Below, in pieces: positions 1,988-52,148 of a stretch of DNA of 64,000 nucleotides (the stretch's first letter is position 1; every line of letters begins with the position of its first letter). The DNA is from Pirellulales bacterium (GTDB taxonomy: Bacteria; Planctomycetota; Planctomycetia; Pirellulales; JBGAPH01). The position numbers and the translations under genes are program-made. Under the pieces are notes generated by a model. The model was given only the letters and a program-made list of their open reading frames with translations. It did no database searches and was not told where the DNA came from. Location of the stretch: contig JBGAPH010000017.1 in assembly GCA_044221365.1 (NCBI GenBank), positions 31,491 through 95,490 on the forward strand, given 5' to 3'.

Positions 1988-3346
1988 CTAGCTGCGCCGA
2001 CGGCGCAGCCCGGCCCGCAGGGCCAGCCCTGCCAAACCGAGTCCGGCCAGCGCCAAGGTCGAGGGCTCGGGGACGGCGGCGCCCCCCGACTTGCCGAAGT
2101 TCTCCTTCAGGATGCCGAAGTCGGAGAGGTCGACCTTGCCGTTGCCGTCGATGTCGCCGGGGATGCCGGAAACTCCCACGGCGTTGCCGGTGAAGGTCGC
2201 CTCGGCGAAGGTCGAGCCACCCAGCACCGTCTCGGTGGAGTACAAGCGATAGGTGTGCGTCTGGCCAGGGCCCACGTAAACACCCAGGCTAGGACTGGCC
2301 GTCTTGTCGCCCAATTGGGTGGTGCCGGCCGGACCGAACGGGGGCGAGTAGGCGTTCGAGCCCAAGCGCACCTCGTATTCCAACTTGTTGCCTCCGCCCA
2401 GGTCGCGCGAATACACCTCGCGCAGATCCCAGCTCGGATCGTAACCGGCGATCGGATCACCCGTCTTCGGGTCCGACACGTAGGCGGCGCCATGCACCAG
2501 GTTGTCAGCGGTCATCGAAAGATGAGCCACCGGCGTACCTGGGGTGAACGTCGTCACGGTGGGCAGGCCCGGATCGAGCCCGCGAACGCCCTTGTCGTAC
2601 AACGTCTGGACCTGGGTGTCGGTGAGGGCCTCGTCCCAGATGGCGAAATCGTCGTAGTCGCCCTTCGAGGCGCCGGTGGCGTTGGCGCCGCTGCCGAGCC
2701 AGAGGCCGCCGCGGGGCGCGACCAGGGGAGCGGTCGAGACCCCGGCGTCCGCCTCGAACAGCAAAGAGCCGTTGACGTAGACGCGCTTGTCGTCGCCGTC
2801 CTTGATGAACGTCCACTGGTTCCATGCGCCCGACCACAGACTGGGGTCGTCGACGGCCGCATTCACGCGGGTGTCGGGGTCGCAGCAGCCTCCGGTGTCG
2901 AAGTAGACGTTGCTGTTGCTCCAAGGCACGTGTGCCTGGAAGGAGCGGTTTGGCTCGGCCCAGAAGGCCGACTGGTTGCGCGGCTGATCGTCGGAGCCGT
3001 ACTGCCAGAACGAGATCGTCAACTTGTTGTTGGTTGCGATCGAGTCAAATGCACCGCTCAGCGCCGAAATGACCTCCACGGCGCCGCCATCGGCGCCATC
3101 GAGCGTGAGGGCCATGTCGCCCGCTTTGCCGGTGTGACCGCCGGCGTCGGCCGTGTAGACCGCGGTCCCTTCGATCTTGCCATGGTGACTGCCGCCGCTC
3201 TGGTCCAGAGCAATGGAGGCGTCGGGGCCGTTGACCGTGTTGAAATCCCAGTAACCCAACAGCTCGGCAAACGCCGGCTGCGTCAGCGCGCTCAGGCCCG
3301 CGACAGCCACAACGGCCGCGGCCCAGCGCTTCAATGACAAACTCAT
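1988..3346 (-). CDS. Secreted LamG/ConA-like domain protein with dockerin-like loop and PEP-CTERM anchor
   Basis: ATG at 3346 is preceded by GAGAGGTG. Signal peptide MSLSLKRWAAAVVAVAGLSALTQPAFA, then LLGYWDFN.. LamG-like block. C-terminus is GDIDGNGKVDLSDFGILKENFGKSG + VPEPSTLALAGLGLAGLALRAGLRRRRS. Confidence 0.85.
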   Translation of the reverse strand: MSLSLKRWAAAVVAVAGLSALTQPAFAELLGYWDFNTVNGPDASIALDQSGGSHHGKIEGTAVYTADAGGHTGKAGDMALTLDGADGGAVEVISALSGAFDSIATNNKLTISFWQYGSDDQPRNQSAFWAEPNRSFQAHVPWSNSNVYFDTGGCCDPDTRVNAAVDDPSLWSGAWNQWTFIKDGDDKRVYVNGSLLFEADAGVSTAPLVAPRGGLWLGSGANATGASKGDYDDFAIWDEALTDTQVQTLYDKGVRGLDPGLPTVTTFTPGTPVAHLSMTADNLVHGAAYVSDPKTGDPIAGYDPSWDLREVYSRDLGGGNKLEYEVRLGSNAYSPPFGPAGTTQLGDKTASPSLGVYVGPGQTHTYRLYSTETVLGGSTFAEATFTGNAVGVSGIPGDIDGNGKVDLSDFGILKENFGKSGGAAVPEPSTLALAGLGLAGLALRAGLRRRRS

Positions 3347-3631
3347 CGTTGGCACCTCTCGAGGAAACGGAAACGCGAATGGGGAAACGCATCTCTCTGT
3401 TCAGGGGACCAACTTCTCCGTTCACACCGGACGAATCCCACGGCGCAGGGGACTCGAGCGCGGGCTCGCCTTGCCAGGAGCGAGACTCGGGTGAGGTTTC
3501 TCCAGGGCTGCTGGGGCGCCAAGCCGTGGGCCTTTTGCTGCGTTCCGGCGCAGTTCGGCCCAGCGGAAGCTTGGAAGGTAGGGGTGTGCTAAACCGTCAC
3601 AGCCTGGCGGCCGGAGCGGCTTGTGGCGGAT

Positions 3632-3660
3632 AGTCTAGCTAGCCTATGCGGATAATGCAA
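3632..3660 (-). promoter_or_regulatory. Candidate sigma-70 promoter for gene 1988..3346 inside a short AT-rich island
   Basis: The minus strand reads TTGCAT, a 17-nt spacer, then TAGACT. This sits in the only AT-rich stretch of this spacer and would give a roughly 280-nt leader. Confidence 0.3.
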
Positions 3661-3720
3661 AATAAAACCATAGCGTAGTAACTAATTTTCCCTCTCGGAA
3701 AGCCCAGAATCATTCGCTAG

Positions 3721-3766
3721 CAAACGAAAGGCCCTCCGCAATCCCGGAGTGAGACTGCGGAGGGCC
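3721..3766 (-). terminator. Terminator hairpin after gene 3804..5753
   Basis: An 11-bp stem (GGCCCTCCGCA / TGCGGAGGGCC, 3730-3766) is followed on the minus strand by TTTCGTTTG. Confidence 0.6.
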
Positions 3767-3803
3767 AGAAATCGGCCGATTCCCTGAGAGGGAACGGCGA
3801 TCC

Positions 3804-5753
3804 TTAAGCCGTGCGACGGCGCTTGAGCGATCGGGCGACCAGGCCCGCCACCCCCAGCAGGGCCAACAGCCCCGTCGAGGGCTCCGGCACGGCCGCCGCC
3901 CCCGACTTGCCAAAGTTCGCCTTGAGGATGCCGAAGTCGGACAGGTCGACCTTGTTGTCGCCATTGAGGTCCCCCGGCAGACCGCCCCCGCCGCCGACGC
4001 CCGTCAGCGTGGTGTTGATCACCGTGCTGCCGCCCACCAGTCCTTCGCCGTCGGCCACCGTGAGCCGCAGGTTATAGGTCTGGCCGGCGCCCAAGGTGAA
4101 TCCCAGCGGGACGTTGGCCGCCTGATCGCCGACCGAGGTCAGCCCGGCGGCGCCGAGCGTCAGGTCCTTGGCGATCGTCCCGAGCGGCACCAAGAACTCA
4201 TAAGACACCCCCGGCAGCTTGCTGCGGAAGAAGTCTTCGTCGATGGTGTGGAAGCCGGGGTAGCCCACGCTTTCGCCGTCGGCGTTGTCCTGCTTGGCGC
4301 CCGTGTAGTCCCAGAGCAAGCGGAAGTTGTCGCCGCCGCCCCCCTCCGCGCCGCGGAAATCGATCGGGTACCAGCCCGCGGCGTCGAACGTCAGGCTCCC
4401 CACCCCGCCCCCCACGCCCACCGAGCGGAAGCCGGTGGCCACGTTGTCGTCGATCAGCACTTCGCCGTCGACCGAAAGGTAGGCGTAGTCGTCGTTGTGG
4501 TCGCGGAACGTATAGGTGCCCGCGGCCGGAATGAAGATCTCGCCCGAGAAACGGGCCGAGTAGTTCTCGTGGTTGCCGACCCAGCCGGTCGCCGCCGGAT
4601 ACTCCGGCGTCAGGTTGCCATTCGGATCGGTCTTGTTGTTGCCATAGGAGACCGTCGGCACACGAAAGGCCGGGTAGTCGGGAAACGACGCGGCGTCGGT
4701 GTAGTGTCCCGGCGACGGGGTCGCCGAGCTCCAAACCGCCGACGTATTCCAGTTCGGACCGTTGAACCACTCCACCGCCAGACCAGGCTGGTAGGCCGTG
4801 TCGGGGGCAACGAGCGTCTGCGACACAACCTGGCTGACCGACCACTCAGCGTCGTGAGCGACTGCGGCCCCGGTGCCGGCGTCGGCCACGTAGGCAGCGC
4901 CGACCAAGGCATTGTTGGCGCCGAGAGCCAAGCGGCCCGCCGGCACAGGGGGCGTGTAGGTGGTGACCGTAGGCAGTCCGGCCTCCACCGAGCGCACCCC
5001 TTGCGTGTACAGACTGTCGATCTGCGTCGGCGTCAGGGCTTCGTCCCAGATGGCGAAGTCGTCGAATTCGCCCTTCGAGAAGTTGCCGCCGTTGCCCGAG
5101 CCGAGCCAGAGCCCGGTGAGCGGGCCGTTGAGCGGCGCGGTCGACTCCTCGCTGGAGAGCAGTTCGGCGCCGTTGACGTAAACCGCCTTGTGGTCGCCGT
5201 TCTTGACGAACACCCAATGGCTCCAGCCGCCGGACAAGGTCGACGCGTCAGCCGGCCCGGAGAGCCGGTCCTTGGCGTCGCAGTTGCAGCCTCCGGTGTC
5301 GAAGTAGACGTTGCCGTCTCCCCACGGGGCGTGAGCCTGGAACGAGCGGTCGGGCTCGGCCCAGAACGTCGATTGGCTGAGCGGCTGGTCATCGGAACCG
5401 TAGAACCAGTAGCTCACGGTGAGCTGGTTCTTCTCGGGAATCGAGTCGAACGCGCCAAACGTGGAGCTTTGCAGGAACACCGAATCGTTCGAGCCGTCGA
5501 ACGTGAGGGCGTGATCGCCGGCCTTGCCGGTGTAGCCCCCTTTGTCGGCGGTGTAGGCAGCGCCGCCTTGGATCGTGCCGTGGTTGGCGTTGCCGCTCTG
5601 ATCCAAGGTCAGAGACGGATAGACCGTGTTGGCCGTGTTGAAATCCCAGTAGCCGAGCAGATCGGCCAGCGCGGGCCGGCCGGCGCCGGACAGACCGGCG
5701 GTCAGCAGCGCGACCGCGGCCAAGTGCCTCGAGCGCTTCGTCATGGGTGACAC
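3804..5753 (-). CDS. Secreted LamG + PA14-like domain protein with dockerin-like loop and PEP-CTERM anchor
   Basis: Signal peptide, then LLGYWDFN LamG block. PA14-like segment YSARFSGEIFIPAAGTYTFRDHNDDYAYLSVDGEVLIDDN. C-terminus is [53 protein letters not shown]. Confidence 0.85.
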   Translation of the reverse strand: MSPMTKRSRHLAAVALLTAGLSGAGRPALADLLGYWDFNTANTVYPSLTLDQSGNANHGTIQGGAAYTADKGGYTGKAGDHALTFDGSNDSVFLQSSTFGAFDSIPEKNQLTVSYWFYGSDDQPLSQSTFWAEPDRSFQAHAPWGDGNVYFDTGGCNCDAKDRLSGPADASTLSGGWSHWVFVKNGDHKAVYVNGAELLSSEESTAPLNGPLTGLWLGSGNGGNFSKGEFDDFAIWDEALTPTQIDSLYTQGVRSVEAGLPTVTTYTPPVPAGRLALGANNALVGAAYVADAGTGAAVAHDAEWSVSQVVSQTLVAPDTAYQPGLAVEWFNGPNWNTSAVWSSATPSPGHYTDAASFPDYPAFRVPTVSYGNNKTDPNGNLTPEYPAATGWVGNHENYSARFSGEIFIPAAGTYTFRDHNDDYAYLSVDGEVLIDDNVATGFRSVGVGGGVGSLTFDAAGWYPIDFRGAEGGGGDNFRLLWDYTGAKQDNADGESVGYPGFHTIDEDFFRSKLPGVSYEFLVPLGTIAKDLTLGAAGLTSVGDQAANVPLGFTLGAGQTYNLRLTVADGEGLVGGSTVINTTLTGVGGGGGLPGDLNGDNKVDLSDFGILKANFGKSGAAAVPEPSTGLLALLGVAGLVARSLKRRRTA

Positions 5754-5917
5754 CTCAAAATGAAAGGGAATGCGATCATTGAACGGAGATCATCGACGCG
5801 CTTCCGTCCCGCGGGACGCTTTGCCGGCGCTGTACGGCGCTTGGGTCGCCAGACCCTCGTCGATGGGAGTTGTTTCTGAGGGCGCGCGCTCCCCTGGGGA
5901 GTGCGGCGTGGAGTTGA

Positions 5918-7903
5918 CTACGCGGTCTGTCTGCGGCGCGCCGCCGCCAGGGCAGCGAAGCCAAGCCCGGCCAGCAGCCAGCTCGCAGGCTCCGGCACAG
6001 CGACGCTCGCGCCGCTCTTGCCGAAGTTGTCCTTCAAGATGCCGAAGTCCGTGAGGTCGACCTTGTTGTCGCAGTTCACGTCGCCGGCTAGCGTGCAGCC
6101 GCCCGTCGCTTGACCCGTGAACGTGGCCTGCACCGACGTCGGCGTCGGCAGCAGACCTTGCGGGTCGTTGATCGTGAGCTTGAGCGTGTAGGTCTCTCCC
6201 GCGGGCACCGTAAAGCCAATCGGCACGGTCTTCGCGGCGTCGCCCACCGAGGCCACGCCGGCGACCCCCAGGGCGTAGTCCCCCGCCACGCTCCCTAGTG
6301 GAATCTCCGTGGAGTACGTCACGCCGGGCAGCTTGCTGCGGAAGAAGTCGGCGTCGACCGTATGGAAGCCCGGCCAGCCGAGGCTCTCCTGATCGGGGTC
6401 GTTCTGGTTCGCGCCGGTGTAGTCCCACAGCAACCGAGCGCTGTCGGTCACGGCCCACTGGGCATGCCGGAACTCGATCGAGTACCAGTGCCCCTTCATG
6501 CCGAGATAAGTTTCATCCGTCAGGGTGAAATCCTTCGTGGCGGCGCCGCCGCCGGGCGTCGTTTCGTCGAGGGTGCCGTCCCAGTGGACCCAGTCGGCGT
6601 CCTCAATGAGCGTTTCTCCGTCGATCGTGAGGCTCGCGTAGTCCTCGTTGTGATCCCGGAAGGTCCAGGTGCCGGCCGGCACGAAGATCTCGCCCGAGTA
6701 GCGGCTCGAGTAGTTCTCGTAGTTGCCAACCGGGAAGCTCGAACCGGGGGCATGCGGATACTCGGGCGCGGGATTCCCGTCAGGGTCCTCCTTGCTGTAG
6801 CCGAACGAGATCGTCGGCACGCGAAAGTTGTAGAAGTCGGGCACGTTGGCCACGCTGTTGTAAACACCGGGAGTGGGGGCGTTGGCAGCCCAAGCGGCCG
6901 AGTCGGTCCAGGCCGGATCATTCCAGAACTCCACGGCCAGACCGGGCTGGTAGGCCGTGTCGGCCGGAATCAGCGTGGTGCTGGTCACTCGGCTCAGCGA
7001 CCAGGTGGCGTCGGCGCCCGGAATCGGCGTTGTCGTGCCGGCGGTCGCCAAGTAGGCGGCCCCGACGACTTGGTTGCCCGCGCCCAGTTCGAGCTTGCCG
7101 ACGGGGGTCGGCGGAGCGTAGGTGGTCACCGTGGGGAGCCCGGCCTCGAGACCGCGCACGCCCTTGGTGAACAACGTGTCGACCGCCGCGGCGTCGAGCG
7201 CTTCGTCCCAGATGGCGAAGTCGTCGAACTCCCCCTTGGAGAAGTTGTCGCCGGCGCCCGAGCCCAGCCAGAGCCCGGTCAAGGGGCCGGCCATGGGGGC
7301 CGTCTGGCCGGTGGCCGAAAGGAACTCCTCGCCGTTGACGTAGACGTACTTGTCCTCACCGTCCTTGACGAACACCCAGTTGTTCCAGCCGTCCTTGTAG
7401 GTCGCGGCGTCGGCCGCGCCGTTGAGCCGGGTGTCTCCGCCGCAGCAACCTCCAGTGTCGAAGTAGACGCTGGAATCGCTCCAAGGCACGTGCGCCTGGA
7501 ACGAGCGGTTGGGCTCGGCCCAGAAGGCGGATTGCGCCCGGGGCTGGTCGTCGGAGCCGTACATCCAGAAGGAGACGGTGAGCTTCTGGTTCTCGACGAT
7601 CGAGTCGAAGGCGCCGTAGGTCGAGCTTTGCAGGAAGACATCGTCCCCTGCGCCGTCGAGCAGCAGCGCCTTGTCGCCGGCCTTGCCGGTGTGTCCGCCG
7701 GCGTCGGCGGTGTAGGTTGCATCCCCCTTCAGCCCGCCGTGGTTGGCGTTTCCGCTCTGATCGAGCGTGAGCGAAGGCGCCGCCGCATTCGGCGTGTTGA
7801 AGTCCCAGAAACCCAGCAAATCGGCCAGCGCCAGGCTTGCTCCGCCCCATAGGCAGACCCCCAGCGCGGCGATTGCAGAGAATCGCCTGAAGCGCATCGT
7901 CAT
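5918..7903 (-). CDS. Secreted LamG + PA14-like domain protein with dockerin-like loop and PEP-CTERM anchor (third paralog)
   Basis: Start is taken at MTMRFRRFSAIAALGVCLW.., an ATG after AAGAGGTG; the track ORF extends to 7966. It has the LLGFWDFN block, YSSRYSGEIFVPAGTWTFRDHNEDYASLTIDGETLIED, and GDVNCDNKVDLTDFGILKDNFGKSG..VPEPASWLLAGLGFAALAAARRRQTA. Confidence 0.85.
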   Translation of the reverse strand: MTMRFRRFSAIAALGVCLWGGASLALADLLGFWDFNTPNAAAPSLTLDQSGNANHGGLKGDATYTADAGGHTGKAGDKALLLDGAGDDVFLQSSTYGAFDSIVENQKLTVSFWMYGSDDQPRAQSAFWAEPNRSFQAHVPWSDSSVYFDTGGCCGGDTRLNGAADAATYKDGWNNWVFVKDGEDKYVYVNGEEFLSATGQTAPMAGPLTGLWLGSGAGDNFSKGEFDDFAIWDEALDAAAVDTLFTKGVRGLEAGLPTVTTYAPPTPVGKLELGAGNQVVGAAYLATAGTTTPIPGADATWSLSRVTSTTLIPADTAYQPGLAVEFWNDPAWTDSAAWAANAPTPGVYNSVANVPDFYNFRVPTISFGYSKEDPDGNPAPEYPHAPGSSFPVGNYENYSSRYSGEIFVPAGTWTFRDHNEDYASLTIDGETLIEDADWVHWDGTLDETTPGGGAATKDFTLTDETYLGMKGHWYSIEFRHAQWAVTDSARLLWDYTGANQNDPDQESLGWPGFHTVDADFFRSKLPGVTYSTEIPLGSVAGDYALGVAGVASVGDAAKTVPIGFTVPAGETYTLKLTINDPQGLLPTPTSVQATFTGQATGGCTLAGDVNCDNKVDLTDFGILKDNFGKSGASVAVPEPASWLLAGLGFAALAAARRRQTA

Positions 7904-7977
7904 TGGTGACACCTCTTGTGAGAAATGGAGGCGCGACTCTTGATAGAACCGCGCCACGAGAAACAAACGCTGCGGAG

Positions 7978-8078: not shown

Positions 8079-9104
8079 CTAGAGACTGCTCAAATCGACC
8101 GCCTCGCCATCTTCACGATTGCCCAGGCGGCGATGAAGTTGTTTGTCGACCGCGTAGCTCACGCTTCGCACCGAGCCGTCGCAGAACACCATGTTGAACG
8201 CAGCGCTATGCGCGCTGCCGAACGGATAAGGGTTCATGTTGCCGGGTTGGTCTTGAAGCGGGGCGTACTTGTCGATCAGTGAAGTACTGGTTCTGGTCGA
8301 GCGGTGATTATCGTTGTTATAGCCCGAGTACATGCTCTCGTTGTCCGCACCGTCGGAGCCATCTTCGTACGAATCCGGGTTGAGGTACTTTTCGCCGATC
8401 ATGTAGGTGTTGCTGGCCCCGTCCAAGACGTCTCCGACGCGAATCTGGCTCCGCAAGTAGCAAATGCCGGTCGCTGCCTTGCTGACGTCCGGCCAGGTTC
8501 CGGAAGCCGCCATCTGGTCTCCCTGTCCGAGCGTCTCGGGGCCATCGAGGTCCCAGTTCGTCTCCGGATCGCCGCAGTTCGCCGCGTAGTCGGTGCGGGC
8601 TACCCGGCTCACGCGCGAGGTGTTGATAGGCTGCGCGCAGGTGGGACAACTAACATTGACCGCAAAGGGCCGATTCGCCCGCCGTGTGGGGCATTGGTGC
8701 ATGGCCAGCGGCGTTTGAATGCGCTGGGCGCTGGCGTCGGCTTTGGCCTTGCCGGTGAGGCCCTTGCCCAAGTCGTACAGTGCTTGCTGCTCCATGAAGG
8801 GCAGCACCGCGTAGACCCAACCGCCGGGCTGCTTCATTCCGCTCTCGCGGTCGGGGTCGCCCACCCAGCGCCAGCCCCAGCCGCCGGAGGGAAACCGCTG
8901 CATCCGGTCGTGGTGCAGGTGCATCGTCAGCCCCTGCTGCTTCAGATTGTTCACGCACTGGACCCGCCGGGCCGACTCGCGGGCCGCCTGCACCGCCGGC
9001 AACAGCAGCGCGATCAGGATGCCGATGATCGCGATCACCACCAACAACTCGACGAGGGTGAAGCCCCGCCGCCGGAGTTGCCAGATTTTCGCCAAGCCAT
9101 CCAT
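8079..9104 (-). CDS. DUF1559 / prepilin-type N-terminal methylation-motif protein with HX9DG C-terminus
   Basis: [45 protein letters not shown], and a C-terminal [21 protein letters not shown]. The ATG at 9104 lies 4 nt after the upstream stop. Confidence 0.85.
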
Positions 9105-9108
9105 CGTT

Positions 9109-10107
9109 TTAGTTTCCCGCGGCCACGCTGACGGCGTTCCCGTCTTCACGATTGGCCAAATAGCCATGCACGATCGGGTCGATCGAGTACGAGATCGATT
9201 GTACCGAACCGTCGCACATCGCCGCCTGAAACCGACCTACGTGGGCGCTGCCGAAGTTGGAGTAGTTCTGCAATCCGGGCCGATCCTGCATCGGGGCCAA
9301 TTCCGCGTTCGCCCAACGATTCACGTCCCAGTCGTGCCCCTGATACATGCTCGTGTTGTCGGCCCCGTCTTCGCCCGTTTCGTAGTGCTCGACCTGCAGG
9401 TACTTCTCGGCGGCGAAGTAGGTGTTGGTCGTGCCGTCGGTCACTTCGGCGATCCGGACTTCGCTGATCAAGTGCGAGATGCCGGTCTGCTGGGCCCGCC
9501 AGGAAGGCCAGCCCGACCAGTTCGGGTCTTGTCCCTGGGCGACGGTTTGCGGGCCTTCGAACGTTTGGACGATCGTGCCGGAGTTGGCTGCGTAGTCGGT
9601 GCGGGCATGGCGATCGACGACCACCGCGTTGAGCGAATGGTTGGTGATTTGCACCGCAAAGGCCACGGAGCGGCGGCGCGTGGGGCAATTGAAGAACGAA
9701 ATCGGCGTCTTACAGACTTGCCCCGCCAACTGCTTCTTGTTGTTGGCCGTGTCTCCCTTGCCCAGATCGTGCAAGGCTTGCTGCTCGACGAAGGGCAAGA
9801 GGTTGTACACCCAACCGGCGGGCTGGCTATGCCCGAACCCGCGGTCGGGATCGCCCACCCACTCCCAGCCCCAACCGCTCGAGGGAAAGTGCTTTTGGGA
9901 GTGCTCGTGGACCATCGCCCCGAGCCCAAGCTGCTTGAGATTGTTGGTGCACTGCGTTCGCCGCGCCGCCTCGCGCGCAGCCTGAACCGCAGGGAGCAAC
10001 AGCGCGATGAGGATTCCGATGATCGCGATCACCACCAACAACTCGACCAACGTGAACGCACAGCGTTCGGCCGGGGCGCAACGAGACCCCGAGCGGCTCT
10101 TAGGCAT
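9109..10107 (-). CDS. DUF1559 / prepilin-type N-terminal methylation-motif protein with HX9DG C-terminus
   Basis: ATG at 10107 ([59 protein letters not shown]), and C-terminal [21 protein letters not shown]. The upstream part of track ORF 9109..10518 looks non-coding. Confidence 0.85.
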
Positions 10108-37708: not shown

Positions 37709-38029
37709 TGAACCTAGTGCTGCGTCACAGCTAGAAGTTCGGGTTGCCCCTCCGATACTAGCCCGCAGCGCAAGCAAGGGAGAGCCACGTTTCCCTGGCC
37801 GAGCCTCGCAGACCCCTGCACGGGCCGGGCGGCATTTTCGGCCAGCGCGCCCCTTCCAGCCTGTCTGGGCCGCCAGGGAACCCAAGGCCTTGAAGGCCCC
37901 GCCCTACTCCAGGTAGCAGGGTTTTCGTAGGTCGGCTAAACTACCACCGCGCGGTCATTGCCCCAGGCTGGTCGATGGGGCTGGGCAGAACGGCCGGGCC
38001 AACGTTTGTCCGTCTACCCGCGGGAGGGG

Positions 38030-39196
38030 ATGCCCTTGGCCGAGCCGGTCCTTCGATTCCTGCACGCCAGCGACCTGCGTCTGCACGAGCCGCTGACCGG
38101 GCCGATCGACCCGCCGGAATTCCTGCGCACGGCGCTGGTCGAAGCCCCCTACGACGCGGCTCGCCGGGTGTTCGACGCGGCCCTCGAAAACAAGGTCGAC
38201 TTCCTGCTGCTCACCGGCGACACGGTTGACTACGACGCCGCCGGCCCGCGGAGCCTGGTGTTCCTGGGCGATCAGTTCGCTCGCCTGGAGCGCGAAGGAG
38301 TCGCGGTCTACTGGCTGGCGGCCGAAGACGCGGCCGAGCTTTGGCCTGCCGAACTGCCGCTATCGCGCAACGTGGTCCGCGTGGGCCCGGGGCTCGTCGA
38401 GCACGTCCATCGCCGCGCCGGCGCAGCCGCTGCCCGCATCATGACGGCCGAGGCGGTGCTGGCCCGCCGTGTGCCCGCCGCTCGATCCACCGAACCGCTG
38501 CCGCCGCTCGTGGCCCTGGCCGGCAATGATCCGCCGCAGCGTTTCGAGGGGGAGTTGGTGCCGCGGTACTGGGCGCTGGCCGGCTGCTCGGAACGCCGCA
38601 ATGTGTTGGCCGGCCCCACCCAGGCCCACGACCCCGGCAGTCCGCAAGGCCGCACGCTCGACGAAGTGGGCGCCCACGGCTGCACGCTCGTCGAAATCGA
38701 TCGCGCGGGGGAGACGACGCTGCGGATCGTGCCGACCGACGTTTGCCGCTGGGTGCAACACGCTGTGGAGCTCGAGCGGCCGACGAACGAGGCCCAGATC
38801 GAACGCCTCCTGCACGACCGCGTGGCGACGCTGCGGCAGTCGAGCGGCCCCCGCGAAACGCTAGTCCACTGGACGGTGCGGGCCACCAAGGCCGCCGCCA
38901 CGCTCCGCTGGCACGACGCCTTTGCCCGCACCGCGATCGACCGCCTGAATCAAGCGCACGCGGGTTCATCTCCGGCCGTGTTCACCTGCGGGCTCGAGCT
39001 CGAGGTTGCCGAGCCGGAACGCGCGACCAACCCTGAATCGTTCTTCGGGCAATTCGAACTGGCGCTCGAGGAGCTGACCGCCGAAGAACTCGAGACGGCC
39101 GACGACGTACCGGTCGAACTCGAGCCGCCCCGCATCATGGCCCGCGCCGCCCGCTTGGGCCGCAGCCTGCTGGTGGGCGAGGAGCCGGCGCGATGA
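38030..39196 (+). CDS. Calcineurin-like phosphoesterase, SbcD/SbcF(YhaO)-like, with divergent metal-binding motifs
   Basis: ATG after GGGAGGGG. LRFLHASDLRLHEP, FLLLTGDTVDYD, LVALAGNDPP, GAHGCTLVEI. The stop overlaps the next start (ATGA). Confidence 0.68.
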   Translation: MPLAEPVLRFLHASDLRLHEPLTGPIDPPEFLRTALVEAPYDAARRVFDAALENKVDFLLLTGDTVDYDAAGPRSLVFLGDQFARLEREGVAVYWLAAEDAAELWPAELPLSRNVVRVGPGLVEHVHRRAGAAAARIMTAEAVLARRVPAARSTEPLPPLVALAGNDPPQRFEGELVPRYWALAGCSERRNVLAGPTQAHDPGSPQGRTLDEVGAHGCTLVEIDRAGETTLRIVPTDVCRWVQHAVELERPTNEAQIERLLHDRVATLRQSSGPRETLVHWTVRATKAAATLRWHDAFARTAIDRLNQAHAGSSPAVFTCGLELEVAEPERATNPESFFGQFELALEELTAEELETADDVPVELEPPRIMARAARLGRSLLVGEEPAR

Positions 39197-42100
39197 TCAT
39201 TCGCAAGCTGCGGGTTGATCGCTTCGGCGCCTGGCGCGACCTCGAGCTCGGCCCCCTCGACGATGGGCTGCACGTCTTCTACGGCCCGAACGAAGCCGGC
39301 AAGACGACGCTGCTGCACTTTCTGCGGGCCATGCTGTTTGGCTTTTCCGCGGAGCGCCGCGAGCGTTACGGCGCGAGCGTCGGGCCCGAGGGGGAAGAGC
39401 GCGACGTCGGCGGCTCGCTCGAACTCGAACTCGAGGGCGACACGCTGCGGCTCGCCCGCCACGACCACGAGCCGCACGAAGCCGGCGCGCAAGGTCGGCT
39501 GCTGCTCGCCACCGAGCTGGGGGACTCGCGCTCGGCGCTCGATTGGGCACGGCTGCGTGGGCCGCTCGACGAGGAAACGTACACGCGGGTCTTCGCCATC
39601 GGCCTGCACGAGTTGCAGGAGTTGGGCGTGCTCAACGACGCCCAGTCGTCGCGCTGGCTCTTCGACATGTCGGCCGGCCTCGAGCACGTGGGACTGCCCG
39701 AAGTGTTGGGGGAACTGCGCCATGCCAGCGCGCGGCTGTGGGGCGGGGCGGAACGCGCAGGTTTGCTGCCGCGGCTGTTGGCCGAACGCGAGAACCTGGT
39801 GCAGAGCATTCACGATCTGCGCGGGCAAACCACCGAATACCTGCGGCTGGCTGCGCGGCGCGAGGAGCTGCAGGAACAGCTCGAGCGACTCGAGGACGAG
39901 CGCGGCGGCTGGACGCGGCGGCTGCGCACGGCCGAGTCGGCCGAACACTTGCACGAGCGCTGGCTGCGCCGCCGCGCCGCGGAGAACGAACTGCAGATGC
40001 TGGGCCAGCTTCCGACTTTTCCGGTCGACGGCCTCGCGCGGCTCGACGAGCTGAATGCCCGCATTCGGAAGCGGCGGCGCGAACTGCAGGTCTGGCGGCG
40101 GCGGCACGGCAAGGCGCGGCAGCGGCTAAAGGGGCTGGCGCTGAACCGCCCTTTAGTGGACAACGCGGCGCGAATCCTGGCTCTCGTCGAACAGCAGCCG
40201 CGGATGCGGGAGCTCGCCGCGCAGTTGGCCGGCGTGCGCCGCGATCCGCCGGCCCCGCCCCCTTCGCCGCCCGTTCCTCCGCCGCACGCCAAGGGGCTCA
40301 AGTCGCCGCCGGTTGCCTTGCCGGCGTGGCACGCCCGCTTGGGCCACCTGACGCCCGAAACGCTGAAGCGGCTGCGGTCCGCCGCCAAGGCCCTGCGCCG
40401 CGCTAGCAAAGCCGCGCGCGAGGCCGGCGAAGCGCACGCCGCTGCCCAGGCCGAGCTCGCGGCCGCGGGCCTCCAAGCACGCTCTGAGGAGCACGAGGGG
40501 GAAACGCTCGACGAGCGGATTGCCCGGCTCGGCGAGCTCGCCTCGCGGCTGCGGAAGCGCGCCCAACTCGAAGATCGCTACGACCAACTCGGCAAGCAGC
40601 GCAAGGAGCTCCGTGAGTACAGCCGCGAGCTGCTCGAGCGGCAGTTGCTCCCGCCCGTGCTCCTGTGGGGCCTGGGCGCGGCGGTAGCCGCCAGCGGGGC
40701 GATGATCCTCGGCGGCTGGCTGCTTCACTCATGGTTCTTTGGCTTTCTCGGGGTGGCCGGCCTGATCATTTCGGCAGGCGTCAAAGTCTGGGTCGATCAA
40801 CAGGCTCGGCAAGAATCGCAGGACTGCGCTGATCAGCTCGAGAACGTCGAACAGGAATTGGCCTCGGCCGGCAATCAGCGCGAAGCGCTCGATCAGCAGC
40901 TCCCCGCAGGGCATGGACCCTGGGCCGTGCGGCTGCAGGCCGCCGAACGTGAGCTGGCCGCCGTCGAAGGCCAACTGCCGCTGCGGGCACGGCAATCGGC
41001 CCAGCGCGCGCAGCTCGATGTGACGGTCTCCGCCGCTGAAAAAGCGCTCCGCGAGCGCAAGGCCCGCCGCCAACAATGGAAGCAGGCCTTACAGCGAGCC
41101 GGCTTGCCAGAAGACTTCCGCCCCGGCGCGCTCGCGGAGCTGCGCCGCGCTTGGCTCGAGCATCGCGCGGAGGCGGAACGCGCCGCGCGTGGCAAAGCCG
41201 ACCAGGCGACGCGGGAGCAAGAATTCCGCGGGTTCGCCGACCGCGTGGCCAAGCTGGCGACCGATGTCGGCCTGGCCGCCGCGCCCACCGATCCGCTCGA
41301 AAAGCTAGCGCGTTTGGCCGCCGATCTCGCGGCTGCCGAAGCGGCTCGCCTCGATTGGCGGAAGCGCAAGAAGCGGGTCGCGCTCGCAACCCGCCGCCGC
41401 CGCAAGGCCGCCCGCGGAGTGGCCAGCGCCAAGACGCGCCGCCGGGCCCTGCTGGCCGGCGCCGGCACGCAAGACGAGGCCCAGTTCCGCCGGCTCGCCG
41501 CGCAGCATGCCCAGGCCGAGGGGCTGCGGCGCGAGCTGACCGCCCTGCGCGAGGAATTGTCGGACGCGGCCGGCGGCGAGCTCGAAGCGGTTCTGGCCGC
41601 GCTCGATGCTTCGCCCGATCGCCGGCAGATCGTCGCCGAGCGCGATCAACTGGCCGAGCGCGAACGAGACCTTGCCGAGCGCATCCAATCGCTGGCCGAA
41701 GAGCGGGGCCGCGTGGGCCAGCAGATGGAGCGGCTGGCGGCCGATCGCAGCTTGCCGCGAGCCCGCGTCGACCTGGCTGCGCTCGATCGCCGCATCGTTC
41801 AGTCGGCCGAAGACTACCGCGTGCAGTCGCTCACCGCTCGGCTCATCGAGCAGGTCCGCGACCGCTATGAGCAGGAGCGGCAGCCGGTCGTGCTGCAAGC
41901 GGCCTCGGCCTGGTTCAAGCAGCTGACGGGCGATCGCTATGCCCGCGTGTGGACTCCGCTGGGCGAACGAGTGCTGCGGGTCGACGCGGCCGACGGCCAA
42001 ACGTTGTTGGTCGAAGCCCTCAGCCGGGGCACCCGCGAGCAGCTCTTCTTGGCGCTGCGCCTCGCGCTCATCGAGCGGCTCGCGCAAGCAGGCACGCGGT

Positions 42101-42627
42101 TGCCGGTCGTGCTCGACGACGTGCTCGTCAACTACGACGAAACTCGCTCGCGGGCAGCGGCCGAAGTGCTTCGCGATTTCGCGGAGCAAGGCCACCAATT
42201 GCTCCTCTTCACTTGCCACGAGCACATGGCGCGACTCTTCAAATCGCTCAAGGTGGCCGTCACGCGGCTGCCGCGCCGCGGGCACGACGAACCAGCCGAA
42301 ACGACCAACCTGGGGCGCCCGAAACGCCGTGCGGCGCGGGCGCCGCTGCCCATCGAGCCGCCGCCCGAAGCGGAAACAGCTCCGCCTGTGGCCGCGCCGG
42401 TGTTGCCATTGCCCGTCGAAGTGCCGGTCGAGGTGGCTGTCTCCGAGACAGCCAACGGGTTTGTCGAGCTCGTGCTCGCGCCGGTCGAGCCAGCTCCGCC
42501 GCTGGTCGAGATCGAGGAACCACCGCATTTGGTCGCGGCGCCCGAACTCGAGCCGGCCGCCCTGGCGGTCGAAGATCCGCGTGTCCTCTTTGGGGCCTCG
42601 CCTTGGATCGAGGACTCCGAGGCGTAG
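39193..42627 (+). CDS. SMC/Rad50-like AAA ATPase, SbcE(YhaN)-like, with central transmembrane hairpin and Pro-rich tail
   Basis: Walker A FYGPNEAGKTTLLHF, long Ala/Arg/Glu coiled-coil regions. Two predicted TM helices: LLPPVLLWGLGAAVAASGAMILGGWLL..FFGFLGVAGLIISAGVKVWV. Signature LSRGTREQLFLALRLAL, Walker B LPVVLDDVLVNYD. Confidence 0.8.
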   Translation: MIIRKLRVDRFGAWRDLELGPLDDGLHVFYGPNEAGKTTLLHFLRAMLFGFSAERRERYGASVGPEGEERDVGGSLELELEGDTLRLARHDHEPHEAGAQGRLLLATELGDSRSALDWARLRGPLDEETYTRVFAIGLHELQELGVLNDAQSSRWLFDMSAGLEHVGLPEVLGELRHASARLWGGAERAGLLPRLLAERENLVQSIHDLRGQTTEYLRLAARREELQEQLERLEDERGGWTRRLRTAESAEHLHERWLRRRAAENELQMLGQLPTFPVDGLARLDELNARIRKRRRELQVWRRRHGKARQRLKGLALNRPLVDNAARILALVEQQPRMRELAAQLAGVRRDPPAPPPSPPVPPPHAKGLKSPPVALPAWHARLGHLTPETLKRLRSAAKALRRASKAAREAGEAHAAAQAELAAAGLQARSEEHEGETLDERIARLGELASRLRKRAQLEDRYDQLGKQRKELREYSRELLERQLLPPVLLWGLGAAVAASGAMILGGWLLHSWFFGFLGVAGLIISAGVKVWVDQQARQESQDCADQLENVEQELASAGNQREALDQQLPAGHGPWAVRLQAAERELAAVEGQLPLRARQSAQRAQLDVTVSAAEKALRERKARRQQWKQALQRAGLPEDFRPGALAELRRAWLEHRAEAERAARGKADQATREQEFRGFADRVAKLATDVGLAAAPTDPLEKLARLAADLAAAEAARLDWRKRKKRVALATRRRRKAARGVASAKTRRRALLAGAGTQDEAQFRRLAAQHAQAEGLRRELTALREELSDAAGGELEAVLAALDASPDRRQIVAERDQLAERERDLAERIQSLAEERGRVGQQMERLAADRSLPRARVDLAALDRRIVQSAEDYRVQSLTARLIEQVRDRYEQERQPVVLQAASAWFKQLTGDRYARVWTPLGERVLRVDAADGQTLLVEALSRGTREQLFLALRLALIERLAQAGTRLPVVLDDVLVNYDETRSRAAAEVLRDFAEQGHQLLLFTCHEHMARLFKSLKVAVTRLPRRGHDEPAETTNLGRPKRRAARAPLPIEPPPEAETAPPVAAPVLPLPVEVPVEVAVSETANGFVELVLAPVEPAPPLVEIEEPPHLVAAPELEPAALAVEDPRVLFGASPWIEDSEA

Positions 42628-49055: not shown

Positions 49056-52000
49056 CTACCAATAAACCCACCGCTGAAACAACTCCCGCTCCCTCTTCGG
49101 CAGCGCTTCCACGTCGGGCACCAAGTAGCGGTTGTCCTCCAGGTCCACGATCACCTTGCCGCGGGCGCCGAAGTCTTGGACTTGGGTTTGGGTCCAGCGC
49201 ATCGTGAATCGCGTCGGGCCTTGCTCCGTGCGGACCTTGAACTCCAGGTAGCCGTATTCGAGCGTGATCGAGTCGATCGCGTTGATTCTGCGCTGCAGCG
49301 ACCGACGGCCGAGGGCTTGGCGGACCAGGGCTTGGCTCTCGGCTGGCCAGTCGTTCAGGTCGCGGATCAGGCCGAGTTCTTGTTCCTTCCCGTCCGCGTC
49401 CCAGGTGCGGAGGCTGATGAATTCGTGCGGCCGCGTGGCGGGGAAGGATTGGACGGCGAAGATGCCGCGATGGAGCGTGGACGGCGCGGACGCGTCTGGT
49501 TGTGAAGGGACGGGTTCGTCGCGGTCTTGTTCCGCGAGAGTTTGTGTCGCCCTTTCAGGGCTCATTCCATTCGAATGGGCCGTTTCCAGGGGCTTGCGCC
49601 CCTGGCTAACCTCTGGGCGCCCCTGTCGGGGCTCATGCGGCGAGTTTGTATTCAGGGCGCGTTCAAATAGCTCAAGCGTGATCGCTTGCCGCGGGGCGGC
49701 GTGGAGTTTGGCCGTGGCGGGGTCGAGCCAGCGGGGGGCGAAGGTGGCGCTCTGCGCCTCCGGCTGCGCTTCGTCTGACGAGGGTACTTCGTCGAGTTCG
49801 TCCCAATCGGCGCCTTCCAGCGCCGCCTCGAAGCGTTTGTTCCGGGCAACCTGCGTCTGAATCCGCACGAGCCTGGCATAGGTGCCGTCGAGGCGCATCA
49901 GCTCGTCGTGCGAGCCGTTTTCGATCAGCCGGCCGTCGTCGAACACGAGGATGCGGTCGGAGTTCCGCAGCGTGCTCAGCCGGTGGGCGATGGCCAGCGT
50001 GGTGCGGCCGCGCGAGAGGACCTCGAGGGCTTCTTGAATCGACTTCTCGCTCTCGGTGTCGACGCTGCTCGTGGCCTCGTCGAGCACCAGCACCTTCGGG
50101 TCGTAAAGCAGCGCGCGGGCGATCGACATCCGCTGCCGCTCGCCGCCCGAAAGGCCGGCTCCGCGCTCGCCGAGCCAGGTGTCGTAGCCCAGCGAGGTGC
50201 GGAGGATGAACTCGTGGGCCTGCGCGGCGCGGGCTGCGGCGATCGCCTCTTCCGGCGTGGCCTCGGGGCGGCCGTAAAGCAGGTTTTCGAGAATCGTGCC
50301 GCGGAACAGAAACGGCTCCTGCAGCACCACGCCTACGTGCTGCCGCAGGTCGGCCGTGGCCAGCTGCCGCACGTCGACGCCGTCGAGCAGCACGCGGCCG
50401 GTGTCGACATCGTAGAAGCGGCTGATCAGGTTCACGAGCGTCGTCTTGCCGGAACCGCTGCGGCCCACGATGCCGATCTTCTCGCCCGGCCGCACGGTGA
50501 AGCTCACGTCCTTGAGCACCGGGCGGTGCCGCTCGTAGCCGAACGACACGTTCTCAAAGCGGATCTCGCCCTCGGACTGGGCGAGCCGCTGCGGCGTGGC
50601 TGCGTCGCGCGTTTCGGTCGGAGTGTCGATCACTTCGAACACCCGCTGGCAGCCGGTCAGGAAGCTCGTGAGCCAGGTCGTGAGCTGGCTGAGGGTGCTG
50701 AGCGGAGCGTAGAACATGGCCAGGTAGGCCAGGAAGGCCATCAGCGAGCCGAGGGTCATTTCGCCGGCCAGCACGTCTCGCCCGCCGACATACCAGACGA
50801 TCAGCCCGCCCATGCTGAAGACGAGCGCCATCACGGCGGTGAACGACGTAGCCGCACCTTCGACCGTGGTCCGCGAGGTGCGCAGGTTTTCGCTTGCCCG
50901 CTGGAATTGGTCGAACTCGCGATCCTCCTGCGCAAAGGCCTTCACCACGCGAATGCCAGAGAGCATGCCCGAAAGGCGGCCGGCCTGCTTATGGCTCGAG
51001 TCCCAGTAGCGGTAGTAATTGGGATACACGCGCCGCCAAAAGAACAGGCTGCCGCCGATGACGAACGGCGCGGGGATGAGCGTGTAGAGGGCCAGCTTGG
51101 GGTTGAGCGTAAACAGCATCACGCCGACGCCGATCACCTGCACGATCTGCAAGAGGAAGCCGCCCGTGATCTGCTGAAGCAGGCTGTGCAGCACCTCGCT
51201 GTCGTAGGCGACGCGGCTGACGAGCGAGCCCACCTGATGCCGGTCGTAGTAACCGACGCCGAGGGCATGGAGCTTGCAGACGAGCTGTGCCCGCAGATCG
51301 AAGGTGAGGGCGACGCCCACCTTGTTGGCCAACAGCCCCTTAGCCCAGCTCACGAACCCCAGCAGCACGCGGGCGGCAGCCAGCGCGAGCACCACGAGCA
51401 GCAGCGTTTGCAGGAAAGACGTGGGGTCGGGCGTCTTCGAGCCGCCGGCCAGGATGTCGTCGACCAGGTACTGCTGCAGCTTCGGCGGCGCAAGCTCGAT
51501 CGCCACGCCGACGAGCATGAGCCCACACATGGCCAAGGCCGGCGCCCACTGCGGACGGACCATGTGCCAGAGCCGGGCGACGATCGCCTTCCGCGGCAAG
51601 CAGCGCGGGCACGATTCATCGGCTACCGGCAGCCGCAAGTTGCACTGCGGGCAGTGCGTGGTCTGCTTGCTGACGGGACGCGGCGAGACTTCGCCTTTGC
51701 TGCGGAGTTCCTCGAGCTGTTCGGCGAGCTGGTGGAACCGCGCGCTGTGAGTATTCGAGTAACGGGCGACATCGACCCAGGCGCCGTCTACGTAGCCTTG
51801 CAGCAGTCCCGAGCCGATGCCTCCTTGGGCGCGGAACTTTTCGACCTCGGCCAGCGGCAGATGGTCGACGAGCGTGGGCTCGGCCGTGGCGTCGACGACG
51901 GCCAAGTTGTCTTGGGTGACGACGATCCAATGATCGCGGGGCTCGCCGGCGAGCGAGAGATCGCTGGTGGTGGAGAGGAGAACCGGCACACCGTTGAGCT

Positions 52001-52148
52001 GCTGGTTTTCGAGCAGCTCGTGCACCGCGCAAGGCACAGCTTCCTTGAGCATTTCGGGCGAGAGAATCCCACGAGGCGGACGGACCAACGGAATGCCCAC
52101 GAGCACGCCATCCGACGGCGCCCGCGGGAGCAAAGAAACCGAACACAA
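49056..52148 (-). CDS. Multidomain ABC exporter: N-terminal PH-like domain + Zn-ribbon + 6-TM exporter domain + NBD + C-terminal DUF1854-like domain
   Basis: HCPQCNLRLPVADESCPRC. The TMD looks type I exporter-like. Walker A GRSGSGKTTLVN, signature LSGGERQRMSIARAL, Walker B VLVLDEATSSVD. The C-terminal ..FISLRTWDADGKEQELGLIRDLNDWP..IDSITLEYGYLEFKV..RFTMRW..ELFQRWVYW resembles DUF1854. The start is uncertain: TTG at 52148 or ATG at 52052. Confidence 0.85.
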   Translation of the reverse strand: MCSVSLLPRAPSDGVLVGIPLVRPPRGILSPEMLKEAVPCAVHELLENQQLNGVPVLLSTTSDLSLAGEPRDHWIVVTQDNLAVVDATAEPTLVDHLPLAEVEKFRAQGGIGSGLLQGYVDGAWVDVARYSNTHSARFHQLAEQLEELRSKGEVSPRPVSKQTTHCPQCNLRLPVADESCPRCLPRKAIVARLWHMVRPQWAPALAMCGLMLVGVAIELAPPKLQQYLVDDILAGGSKTPDPTSFLQTLLLVVLALAAARVLLGFVSWAKGLLANKVGVALTFDLRAQLVCKLHALGVGYYDRHQVGSLVSRVAYDSEVLHSLLQQITGGFLLQIVQVIGVGVMLFTLNPKLALYTLIPAPFVIGGSLFFWRRVYPNYYRYWDSSHKQAGRLSGMLSGIRVVKAFAQEDREFDQFQRASENLRTSRTTVEGAATSFTAVMALVFSMGGLIVWYVGGRDVLAGEMTLGSLMAFLAYLAMFYAPLSTLSQLTTWLTSFLTGCQRVFEVIDTPTETRDAATPQRLAQSEGEIRFENVSFGYERHRPVLKDVSFTVRPGEKIGIVGRSGSGKTTLVNLISRFYDVDTGRVLLDGVDVRQLATADLRQHVGVVLQEPFLFRGTILENLLYGRPEATPEEAIAAARAAQAHEFILRTSLGYDTWLGERGAGLSGGERQRMSIARALLYDPKVLVLDEATSSVDTESEKSIQEALEVLSRGRTTLAIAHRLSTLRNSDRILVFDDGRLIENGSHDELMRLDGTYARLVRIQTQVARNKRFEAALEGADWDELDEVPSSDEAQPEAQSATFAPRWLDPATAKLHAAPRQAITLELFERALNTNSPHEPRQGRPEVSQGRKPLETAHSNGMSPERATQTLAEQDRDEPVPSQPDASAPSTLHRGIFAVQSFPATRPHEFISLRTWDADGKEQELGLIRDLNDWPAESQALVRQALGRRSLQRRINAIDSITLEYGYLEFKVRTEQGPTRFTMRWTQTQVQDFGARGKVIVDLEDNRYLVPDVEALPKRERELFQRWVYW
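49548..49660. repeat. REP-like palindrome cluster lying in frame inside the ABC exporter gene
   Basis: Three short palindromes: CCCTTTCAGGG, CCAGGGGCTTGCGCCCCTGG, GCCCCTGTCGGGGC. The stretch CCAGGGGCTTGCGCCCCTGGCTAACCTCTGGGCGCCCC closely resembles the reverse complement of intergenic 48170-48220. Confidence 0.6.

Follow-up and report, generated by a model that had tools for sequence, protein, structure and literature searches.

A planctomycete YhaO–YhaN (SbcF–SbcE) gene pair with a degenerate Mre11-like active site and a predicted membrane hairpin

A gene pair in a 64,000-nt stretch of planctomycete DNA (Pirellulales bacterium, contig JBGAPH010000017.1, positions 31,491–95,490; referred to here as the window) encodes a version of the YhaO–YhaN (SbcF–SbcE) module in which the Mre11-like subunit has taken an unusual course. 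The canonical metal-binding and catalytic site of this phosphoesterase appears, with high confidence, to have been lost, and the protein is probably a nuclease-dead structural subunit of a membrane-tethered complex that handles DNA. The parts of this reading differ in strength. The assignment of both proteins to family and fold is held with high confidence, a scaffold function for the phosphoesterase with moderate confidence, and DNA tethering at the membrane with modest confidence. The pair was found as two overlapping open reading frames:

38030–39196, + strand: phosphoesterase gene, 388 amino acids (open reading frame call)
39193–42627, + strand: ATPase gene, 1144 amino acids (open reading frame call)
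39193–39196, + strand: ATGA start/stop overlap of the two genes, 4 nt in common; the junction reads GCGATGATC

The motifs of the phosphoesterase were positioned by three agreeing alignments: a clade profile against Mre11 of P. furiosus (PfMre11), a MAFFT alignment with canonical relatives, and hhalign. The five canonical motifs fall as follows:

38060–38089, + strand: motif I (canonical D-x-H), LHASDLRLHE; D15 retained, His changed to R17, plus an unusual H19
38207–38233, + strand: motif II (G-D-x-x-D), LLTGDTVDY; G63, D64 and D67 are kept
38306–38335, + strand: motif III (G-N-H-D), VYWL-AAED-AA; AAED is residues 97–100, aligned with PfMre11 VFAIEGNHD
38507–38536, + strand: motif IV (His), LVALAGNDPP; the canonical His is Ala164
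38567–38599, + strand: motif V (G-H-x-H), YWALAGCSERR; A184-G185-C186-S187, both His gone, aligned with PfMre11 YYALGHIHKR

In motif III the Gly, the Asn and the catalytic His are all gone, with a one-residue deletion. A 12-residue GHDxYAPC segment (GHDxYAPCxLxDL) that follows motif IV and is invariant in the canonical clade is deleted throughout the planctomycete clade (window 38507–38540). In PfMre11 we take the ligands of metal 1 to be D8, H10, D49 and H208, those of metal 2 to be D49, N84, H173 and H206, and H85 to be the residue that stabilizes the transition state. Given this ligand set and the aligned motifs, the window protein retains two of the seven metal ligands (D15 and D64) and has no catalytic His. 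An earlier account of this DNA made from its letters alone, the sequence-only reading, had recognized G-D-x-x-D as TGDTVDY and had seen HASDLRLHE in place of D-x-H; both observations hold, the latter as replacement of the motif I His by Arg. Its equation of AGND with GNH(D/E) was mistaken, as the PfMre11 profile, the MAFFT census and hhalign all place GNHD at AAED and ALAGND at motif IV. It had also suspected that two His residues were shifted or replaced, which was right about the loss but not about its extent, since the Ala at motif IV and the AGCS at motif V had been missed.

Across the planctomycete orthologs, loss of the catalytic His and of the second metal site is clade-wide, and loss of the first site is recurrent. 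The census covered 276 nonidentical members collected with the planctomycete profile (80 loci from GTDB genomes, 49 database hits, 145 representatives and 1 canonical reference). The catalytic His of motif III is present in 9 members and absent from 267, the motif III Asn is found in 14, and the first His of motif V survives in 3, with Gly in 263. These counts indicate that the second metal site and the catalytic His have been lost in virtually the whole clade. The other positions are more varied: motif I has His in 211 members, Arg in 40 and Gln in 9; motif IV has His in 120 and Tyr in 86; and the last His of motif V is kept in 201. Most members still have all four ligands at the first metal site (D, H, D, H), and joint loss of these is seen in 54 sequences. 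On a rough neighbor-joining tree, joint loss of the remaining His ligands needs at least 29 changes, and the subclade of the window (the window, L001 and P0001–P0004) represents the extreme end of ligand loss. In the canonical clade, the complete DHD-NHD-H-HxH set is present in 118 of 120 sequences, the other two being N-terminally truncated.

The same census bears on whether the phosphoesterase retains enzymatic activity, through a site with one metal or none drawn from D15, H19, D64 and D67 plus the clade-specific residues H200, H216, R17, R189/R190 and R208. A protein remodeled in this way would hydrolyze or bind a phosphoester, possibly not DNA. H19 (window 38084–38086) lies two residues past the lost motif I His; a His here was gained about 11 times in separate lineages, almost exclusively where canonical His ligands have been lost. 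Among the 17 carriers of a His at position 19, 15 lack the motif I His and all lack the last His of motif V (Fisher p 3e-9 for the association with canonical His loss, not corrected for phylogeny). D15, D64 and the motif III Asp are nearly invariant across the clade, and some "pseudoenzymes" have migrated catalytic residues, as reviews note (PMC10211241). However, the transition-state His is missing from the 267 members noted above, hardly any of the 276 members retain the second metal site, and 44 of the 59 lineages without the motif I His have no His19 either. The repeated loss of the remaining ligands argues that the site is dispensable, and the Pfam Metallophos model (PF00149) covers residues 8–96 only, with a score of 21.4 bits that misses the 21.5 cutoff. 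Remodeled chemistry is in our judgment unlikely. The sequence-only reading had offered either a nuclease-dead scaffold or altered chemistry, and the scaffold is the better supported of the two, with five of seven ligands and the catalytic His gone.

Even though its active site is dismantled, the phosphoesterase keeps the architecture of its family. An AlphaFold2 model built from an alignment of 46 homologues has a predicted local distance difference test score (pLDDT) of 84.5 and a predicted template modeling score of 0.79. The top 50 Foldseek matches of this model in the PDB are all Mre11 or SbcD (E 1e-11 to 5e-9). Sequence identity to solved structures is low, only 11–18%. A search of the PDB sequences with the single sequence returned no relative; a profile search was needed. 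With hhalign, the planctomycete profile aligns to a canonical YhaO-like profile over 408 columns (probability 100%, E 1.9e-82). Bacillus cereus/thuringiensis, Paenibacillus, Cohnella, Aquificota, Thermodesulfobacteriota, Saprospirales and Methanosarcina supplied the canonical sequences. Precomputed PF00149 matches are missing from most members of the planctomycete clade and present in all canonical ones. Blocks away from the catalytic motifs are invariant or nearly so (EAPYxAAxRVFDAAL, AGPRGxxFLxEQFxRL, YWALGG, PGSPQGR, HGCTLV and the helix RVLxEAAxLGxxLL). Two such regions are placed in the window:

38624–38701, + strand: noncatalytic blocks AHDPGSPQGR and AHGCTLV, invariant in the family and common to canonical YhaO-like proteins (PGNxQGR, KGC)
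39131–39184, + strand: conserved C-terminal helix of the phosphoesterase, RIMARAARLGRSLLVGEE; helix 366–381 in the model, with L376, L380 and L381 invariant or nearly so

By analogy with the Mre11 helix-loop-helix, the C-terminal helix is a candidate binder of the base of the ATPase coiled coil, and a dimer interface would be built from the helices on either side of motifs I and II.

A decaying pseudogene, or a reading frame present by chance in high-GC sequence, could also account for a Pfam score just under threshold and the lack of any match to NCBIfam models (PADLOC models did not match the phosphoesterase either). Against this, the ratio of nonsynonymous to synonymous substitution (dN/dS) for the phosphoesterase is 0.09–0.21 over synonymous divergence (dS) of up to about 1, in comparisons with relatives at 96%, 81% and 78% protein identity. 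This is the same range as for the ATPase (0.10–0.17) and indicates that the gene is not decaying. The orthologues are intact and full length, the model is confidently Mre11-like, and both genes have the coding-type GC profile of real genes in this DNA (GC1 ≈ 0.8, GC2 ≈ 0.5, GC3 ≈ 0.8). Decay is refuted by the substitution ratios and the confident model, and can be set aside as extremely improbable; the gene is still functional and under strong purifying selection.

The second gene encodes the SMC-like ATPase, a member of the YhaN/SbcE family (Pfam AAA_27, COG4717). Residues 1–209 match AAA_27 (PF13514, the YhaN domain) at E 1.5e-16, with 61 bits against a cutoff of 22, and there are further Pfam matches to AAA_23 and, weakly, to SMC_N. 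The fold matches of the ATPase model include chains of SMC, Rad50, MukB and JetC. Among 436 homologues, nearly all are from Pirellulales or other Planctomycetota, often named "uncharacterized protein YhaN," and the nearest relative, 95–96% identical, is in the metagenome-assembled genome Pirellulales bacterium STL-PLA32. The elements of the ATPase that the argument draws on are these, with motif invariance scored in a 51-sequence alignment:

39283–39309, + strand: Walker A GPNEAGKTT (residues 31–39); G31 and N33–K37 invariant
40237–40329, + strand: Pro-rich insertion RRDPPAPPPSPPVPPPHAKGLKSPPVALPAW in the N-terminal coiled-coil arm (residues 349–379); pLDDT below 50, no helix, modeled as disordered
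40645–40794, + strand: apical hydrophobic hairpin, with a conserved LLPP break, helix 1 (489–511), a turn of 2–3 residues and helix 2 (514–534), from hydropathy, alignment and AlphaFold2
42019–42225, + strand: signature LSRGTREQ (943–950), Walker B LPVVLDD (970–976) and H-loop FTCHEH; S944, G946, E949, D975, D976 and H1009 invariant
42268–42624, + strand: acidic Pro/Ala/Glu/Val-rich tail ending SPWIEDSEA; about 119 residues, net charge -13, disordered in the AlphaFold2 model

The Walker A, signature and Walker B motifs, described as intact in the sequence-only reading, all fall in invariant columns. The Walker B is of the D-D type and not D-E. No CxxC zinc hook is present in the ATPase sequence, which has only two Cys residues.

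What takes the place of a hook at the apex is the hydrophobic hairpin. Residues 489–534 are the sole hydrophobic stretch of the protein. In the AlphaFold2 model, the arm breaks at LLPP (485–488), a helix runs from 488 to 511, and after a two-residue turn a second helix (514–569) continues into the returning arm. P487, just ahead of the hairpin, is nearly invariant. Homologues have two helices of about 20–23 residues joined by a short, uncharged Gly/Ser-rich turn, with a Pro before them and a Lys, then acidic and basic residues, after. A hydrophobic segment is found at the same relative position in all 120 listed homologues, which makes the hairpin a family trait and not a peculiarity of the window gene; nonplanctomycete YhaN proteins of 927–972 amino acids also have it. 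By unweighted Hessa sums the two helices come to +1.1 and +1.8 kcal/mol, where the protein as a whole averages 22 ± 6, and the hairpin is the only region of the ATPase within reach of membrane insertion on this scale. The hairpin is predicted to span the membrane. The sequence-only reading was correct in placing a pair of hydrophobic helices in the middle of the coiled coil, and its membrane tether remains a prediction. As a separate observation, the ATPase family profile over window 40180–41080 (residues ~330–629) weakly matches MakA, VCA0883 and NheA, which are alpha-pore-forming toxins (E about 3e-4); a likeness to MakA and NheA was set aside as probable compositional similarity of a coiled coil with a hydrophobic hairpin.

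The hairpin has a described counterpart in Bacillus subtilis. Krishnamurthy et al. (PMC2811018) report that the central domain of SbcE is unique, conserved and rich in hydrophobic residues, has a conserved Pro and is insoluble when expressed; they do not term it a membrane anchor. The same work finds that SbcE accumulates at the poles of competent cells, interacts with YhaO, and has DNA-repair and transformation phenotypes.

The arrangement of the genes is also that of the known family. The phosphoesterase gene is followed directly by the ATPase gene in nearly all of the 80 related genome loci, and canonical phosphoesterases (L082 and L083) lie immediately upstream of 963- to 972-residue AAA_27 proteins with the same central hairpin. 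An ATGA or GTGA overlap of 4 nt is found in 37 of the 57 related loci that could be scored, and the canonical L082 junction has the same ATGA overlap. The AAA_27 match, the Mre11 fold, the hhalign result, the adjacency in canonical genomes, the overlap and the hairpin together identify the pair as a bona fide relative of B. subtilis yhaO–yhaN. This agrees with the sequence-only reading, which had called the pair YhaO/YhaN (SbcF/SbcE)-like and had noted the coupling of the two genes by an ATGA overlap. The overlap implies translational coupling, which suggests that a stoichiometric complex of the two proteins is to be expected.

Several side observations concern the same genes. The start of the phosphoesterase is ambiguous among TTG 37958, ATG 38030 and TTG 38036; the stretch GGGAGGGG directly abuts the ATG at 38030, and in relatives P0002–P0004 the gene calls begin at the position matching TTG 38036. 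Scans of the upstream region for a promoter, a terminator and inverted repeats gave nothing over background, and no operator or SOS-box-like element was recognized there. In one 648-residue protein from a 1.8-Mb metagenome contig (P0031), the phosphoesterase is apparently fused to the N-terminal part of the ATPase, which could be explained by read-through of the overlap or by an assembly frameshift. The genome has a GC content of 66%; over window 38001–42000, across the two genes, the value is 0.71–0.72, compared with about 0.66 in the remainder of the window.

The distribution of the pair is that of a core gene. At least 518 species-level genomes within one phylum encode a relative, and the sequence tree broadly follows relatedness; with a limit of E ≤ 1e-30, matches extend to 2704 clusters formed at 50% identity. 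The neighbors in the window are housekeeping or typical of planctomycetes, including sigma-70 factors, ribosomal protein S1, ThiF/MoeB, a methyltransferase, an HD protein, a DUF1080-type hydrolase, a HAD hydrolase, DUF1559 proteins and ABC transporters. No signs of a mobile element or defense island were seen in the window, and no tRNA or Rfam element was found there. Conservation of the neighbors of the window pair extends no further than L001, the 96%-identical relative, so that a conserved third gene is lacking in the window, and no third gene is universally linked across the 80 loci. This context bears on whether the pair is an SMC-like antiphage or antiplasmid module of the Lamassu, Wadjet or Gabija type with the dead nuclease as a sensor. 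The ATPase does give weak PADLOC matches to LmuB (E 4.7e-15), PtuA, mad3 and GajA, and JetC is among its fold matches. However, these PADLOC matches reflect a generic ABC/SMC head and lie far under family level (LmuB, the best, reaches 53.8 bits in two fragments, and the others stay below 30 bits and cover only the P-loop). No family-level match to Lamassu, Wadjet, Gabija, PARIS or Septu proteins was obtained. The phosphoesterase matches no PADLOC model; no LmuA/LmuC, JetABD or GajB genes are nearby; and the occurrence in so many genomes, the purifying selection and the synteny with close relatives are the behavior of a core gene. The defense-island neighbors that the sequence-only reading had suggested looking for are absent, and a defense role, rejected on the generic nature of the matches and the housekeeping context, is very unlikely.

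In relatives of the window pair, the surrounding genes favor a role connected to DNA. A gene for a UvrD/PcrA-type helicase lies directly upstream of the phosphoesterase, on the same strand, in 12 of the 80 loci, all of them closer relatives (L002, L006, L007, L008, L010, L011, L014, L016, L018, L022, L024 and L027). Two close relatives add further examples: in L085 a gene for the DNA glycosylase Fpg (9008–9850) directly precedes the phosphoesterase, and in L086 a PolX (PHP) polymerase gene (3339–5072) lies 4 kb upstream of the pair.

These neighbors also weigh on a different proposal, that the complex has left DNA metabolism and acts on the membrane itself, helping to shape, tether or repair the elaborate endomembranes of planctomycetes, or else acts on a different polymer. 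The loss of the nuclease site would fit such a role, as would the weak profile matches of the arms plus hairpin to MakA and NheA (E 3e-4) and the lack of a repair gene next to the pair in the window. The acidic tail is a further point in its favor. The sequence-only reading had described a roughly 130-residue tail rich in Pro, Glu and Val, and the tail delimited here is close to that description. Pirellulales-type YhaN proteins have such acidic, disordered tails of 100–280 residues with a recurring W-W/I-E-D/E tip at the C terminus, many ending in [DE]xAEAA, and nonplanctomycete YhaN proteins do not have them; a long acidic tail specific to the clade would repel DNA. The tail may be a DNA mimic or a partner-docking motif. 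Against a non-DNA role, the head has all the motifs of a Rad50/RecF-type ATPase, the partner is still complete in its Mre11 architecture and evolves under purifying selection, genes for a UvrD-type helicase, Fpg and PolX are found repeatedly beside the pair in relatives, and the toxin matches are probably compositional. In addition, the hairpin is common to Bacillus-type SbcE, with its phenotypes in DNA repair and transformation (PMC2811018). A departure from DNA is on this evidence distinctly unlikely.

The preferred reading, a nuclease-dead scaffold in a membrane-tethered complex, can be laid out as a working mechanism. The operon is a core chromosomal one, and synthesis of its two proteins is coupled. 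The ATPase has two coiled-coil arms of about 300 residues each, joined at the tip by the two hydrophobic helices with no zinc hook or hinge. With the tip of the arms anchored by these helices in the cytoplasmic membrane, the ATPase head would lie in the cytoplasm at a distance of some tens of nanometers. The phosphoesterase retains the Mre11/SbcD fold, its C-terminal helix and the helices on either side of motifs I and II, but its two-metal site is dismantled and it would not cut DNA. An inert dimer of this subunit would most likely hold two ATPase heads together and couple the ATP cycle to DNA clamping, and the complex would tether or sense DNA at the membrane and leave unwinding and cutting to other enzymes. 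The data show the family and fold, the lost catalytic residues, the purifying selection, the conserved hairpin and the coupling of the genes; that the hairpin inserts into the membrane, that the two proteins form a complex, and that this complex works on DNA as a tether is inferred. Nuclease-dead Mre11 alleles in eukaryotes still support complex formation and DNA tethering, which provides a precedent for an inert phosphoesterase in a tethering complex.

Some of the observations sit less comfortably with this mechanism. Because most clade members retain the four ligands of one metal site, the planctomycete clade as a whole may bind one metal. The new His19 in the window clade could be a relocated ligand, or it could be a cavity filler. 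The window hairpin is borderline hydrophobic, with a Kyte-Doolittle value of about 1.9 compared with 2.2–2.9 in most homologues, and it could sit in the membrane as a reentrant wedge instead of spanning it. Finally, the UvrD gene of the relatives is not found in the window itself.

A bolder account is unlikely and would carry larger consequences. It holds that an entire lineage at the level of a phylum, made up of Pirellulales and related groups with hundreds of species at the least, turned the Mre11-like subunit into a pseudo-nuclease, repeatedly reinstalled a His two residues downstream of the lost ligand and added a DNA-mimicking acidic tail to the ATPase. If the relocated His rebuilds a site, or if the tail autoregulates DNA binding, the complex would be a distinct membrane-tethered machine for sensing or clamping DNA or a non-DNA substrate. 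The conserved job of the SbcE/SbcF family would then be membrane tethering and not cutting.

Two other features of the window lie away from the pair. On the minus strand at 1991–7966 are three consecutive Laminin_G_3 (concanavalin-like) genes, two with PEP-CTERM signals and one with PA14. Also on the minus strand, at 49059–52148, a 1030-residue ABC exporter (transmembrane and ATPase domains) is fused to a C-terminal DUF1854.

YhaN/YhaO (SbcE/SbcF) is a known family that has barely been studied and is among the least understood of the bacterial SMC-like systems. The closest comparison is with SbcE (YhaN) and SbcF (YhaO) of B. subtilis. The order of the genes, phosphoesterase and then ATPase, is the same, and canonical relatives have the same 4-nt overlap. 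The ATPases are alike in the AAA_27 head, the two long heptad arms, the absence of a CxxC hook and the hydrophobic central domain preceded by a Pro. Bacillus-type YhaO-like proteins are homologous end to end with the window phosphoesterase. However, the canonical YhaO-like proteins have all the metallophosphoesterase motifs (118/120), whereas the window protein is left with two of seven ligands, no catalytic His and a deletion of the 12-residue GHDxYAPC segment. The planctomycete ATPase is also about 180 residues longer, with the acidic disordered tail and the Pro-rich insertion in the arm, and the window pair lacks a yhaM-like third gene.

SbcCD and Mre11–Rad50 share with the window pair the Mre11/SbcD fold with its capping domain and C-terminal helices, and the Rad50-type ABC head with an antiparallel coiled coil. 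They differ in that the apex in the window protein is a hydrophobic hairpin in place of a zinc hook, its Walker B is of the D-D (RecF-like) type where theirs is D-E, and its partner has degenerate nuclease motifs. The routine annotation of these proteins is "DNA repair exonuclease SbcCD nuclease subunit," which for the planctomycete clade is almost certainly wrong. Lamassu LmuB, Wadjet JetC and Gabija GajA have the same SMC/ABC-type head as the window ATPase, and LmuB and JetC also have coiled-coil arms. Unlike these systems, the window pair comes without effector or kleisin partners and without an island context, has weak generic scores and is distributed as a core gene.

Our literature search found no natural nuclease-dead partner of the SbcD/Mre11 type, no membrane-anchored SMC-like protein and no reading of YhaN as a membrane anchor. 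The existence of a large natural clade in which the machine is kept and the nuclease discarded indicates that cutting is not needed for what the family does at its core, and it points to membrane-anchored, ATP-driven tethering or sensing of DNA. The nearest parallels for the phosphoesterase are pseudoenzymes and the yeast mre11-H125N and mouse H129N alleles, which keep fold and partner binding and lose catalysis, as expected of a scaffold or allosteric subunit. Those alleles are laboratory point mutants, whereas the planctomycete phosphoesterase represents a natural, phylum-wide dismantling that proceeded stepwise and repeatedly. This stepwise loss of ligands offers a natural series for studying the Mre11-type subunit as a scaffold.

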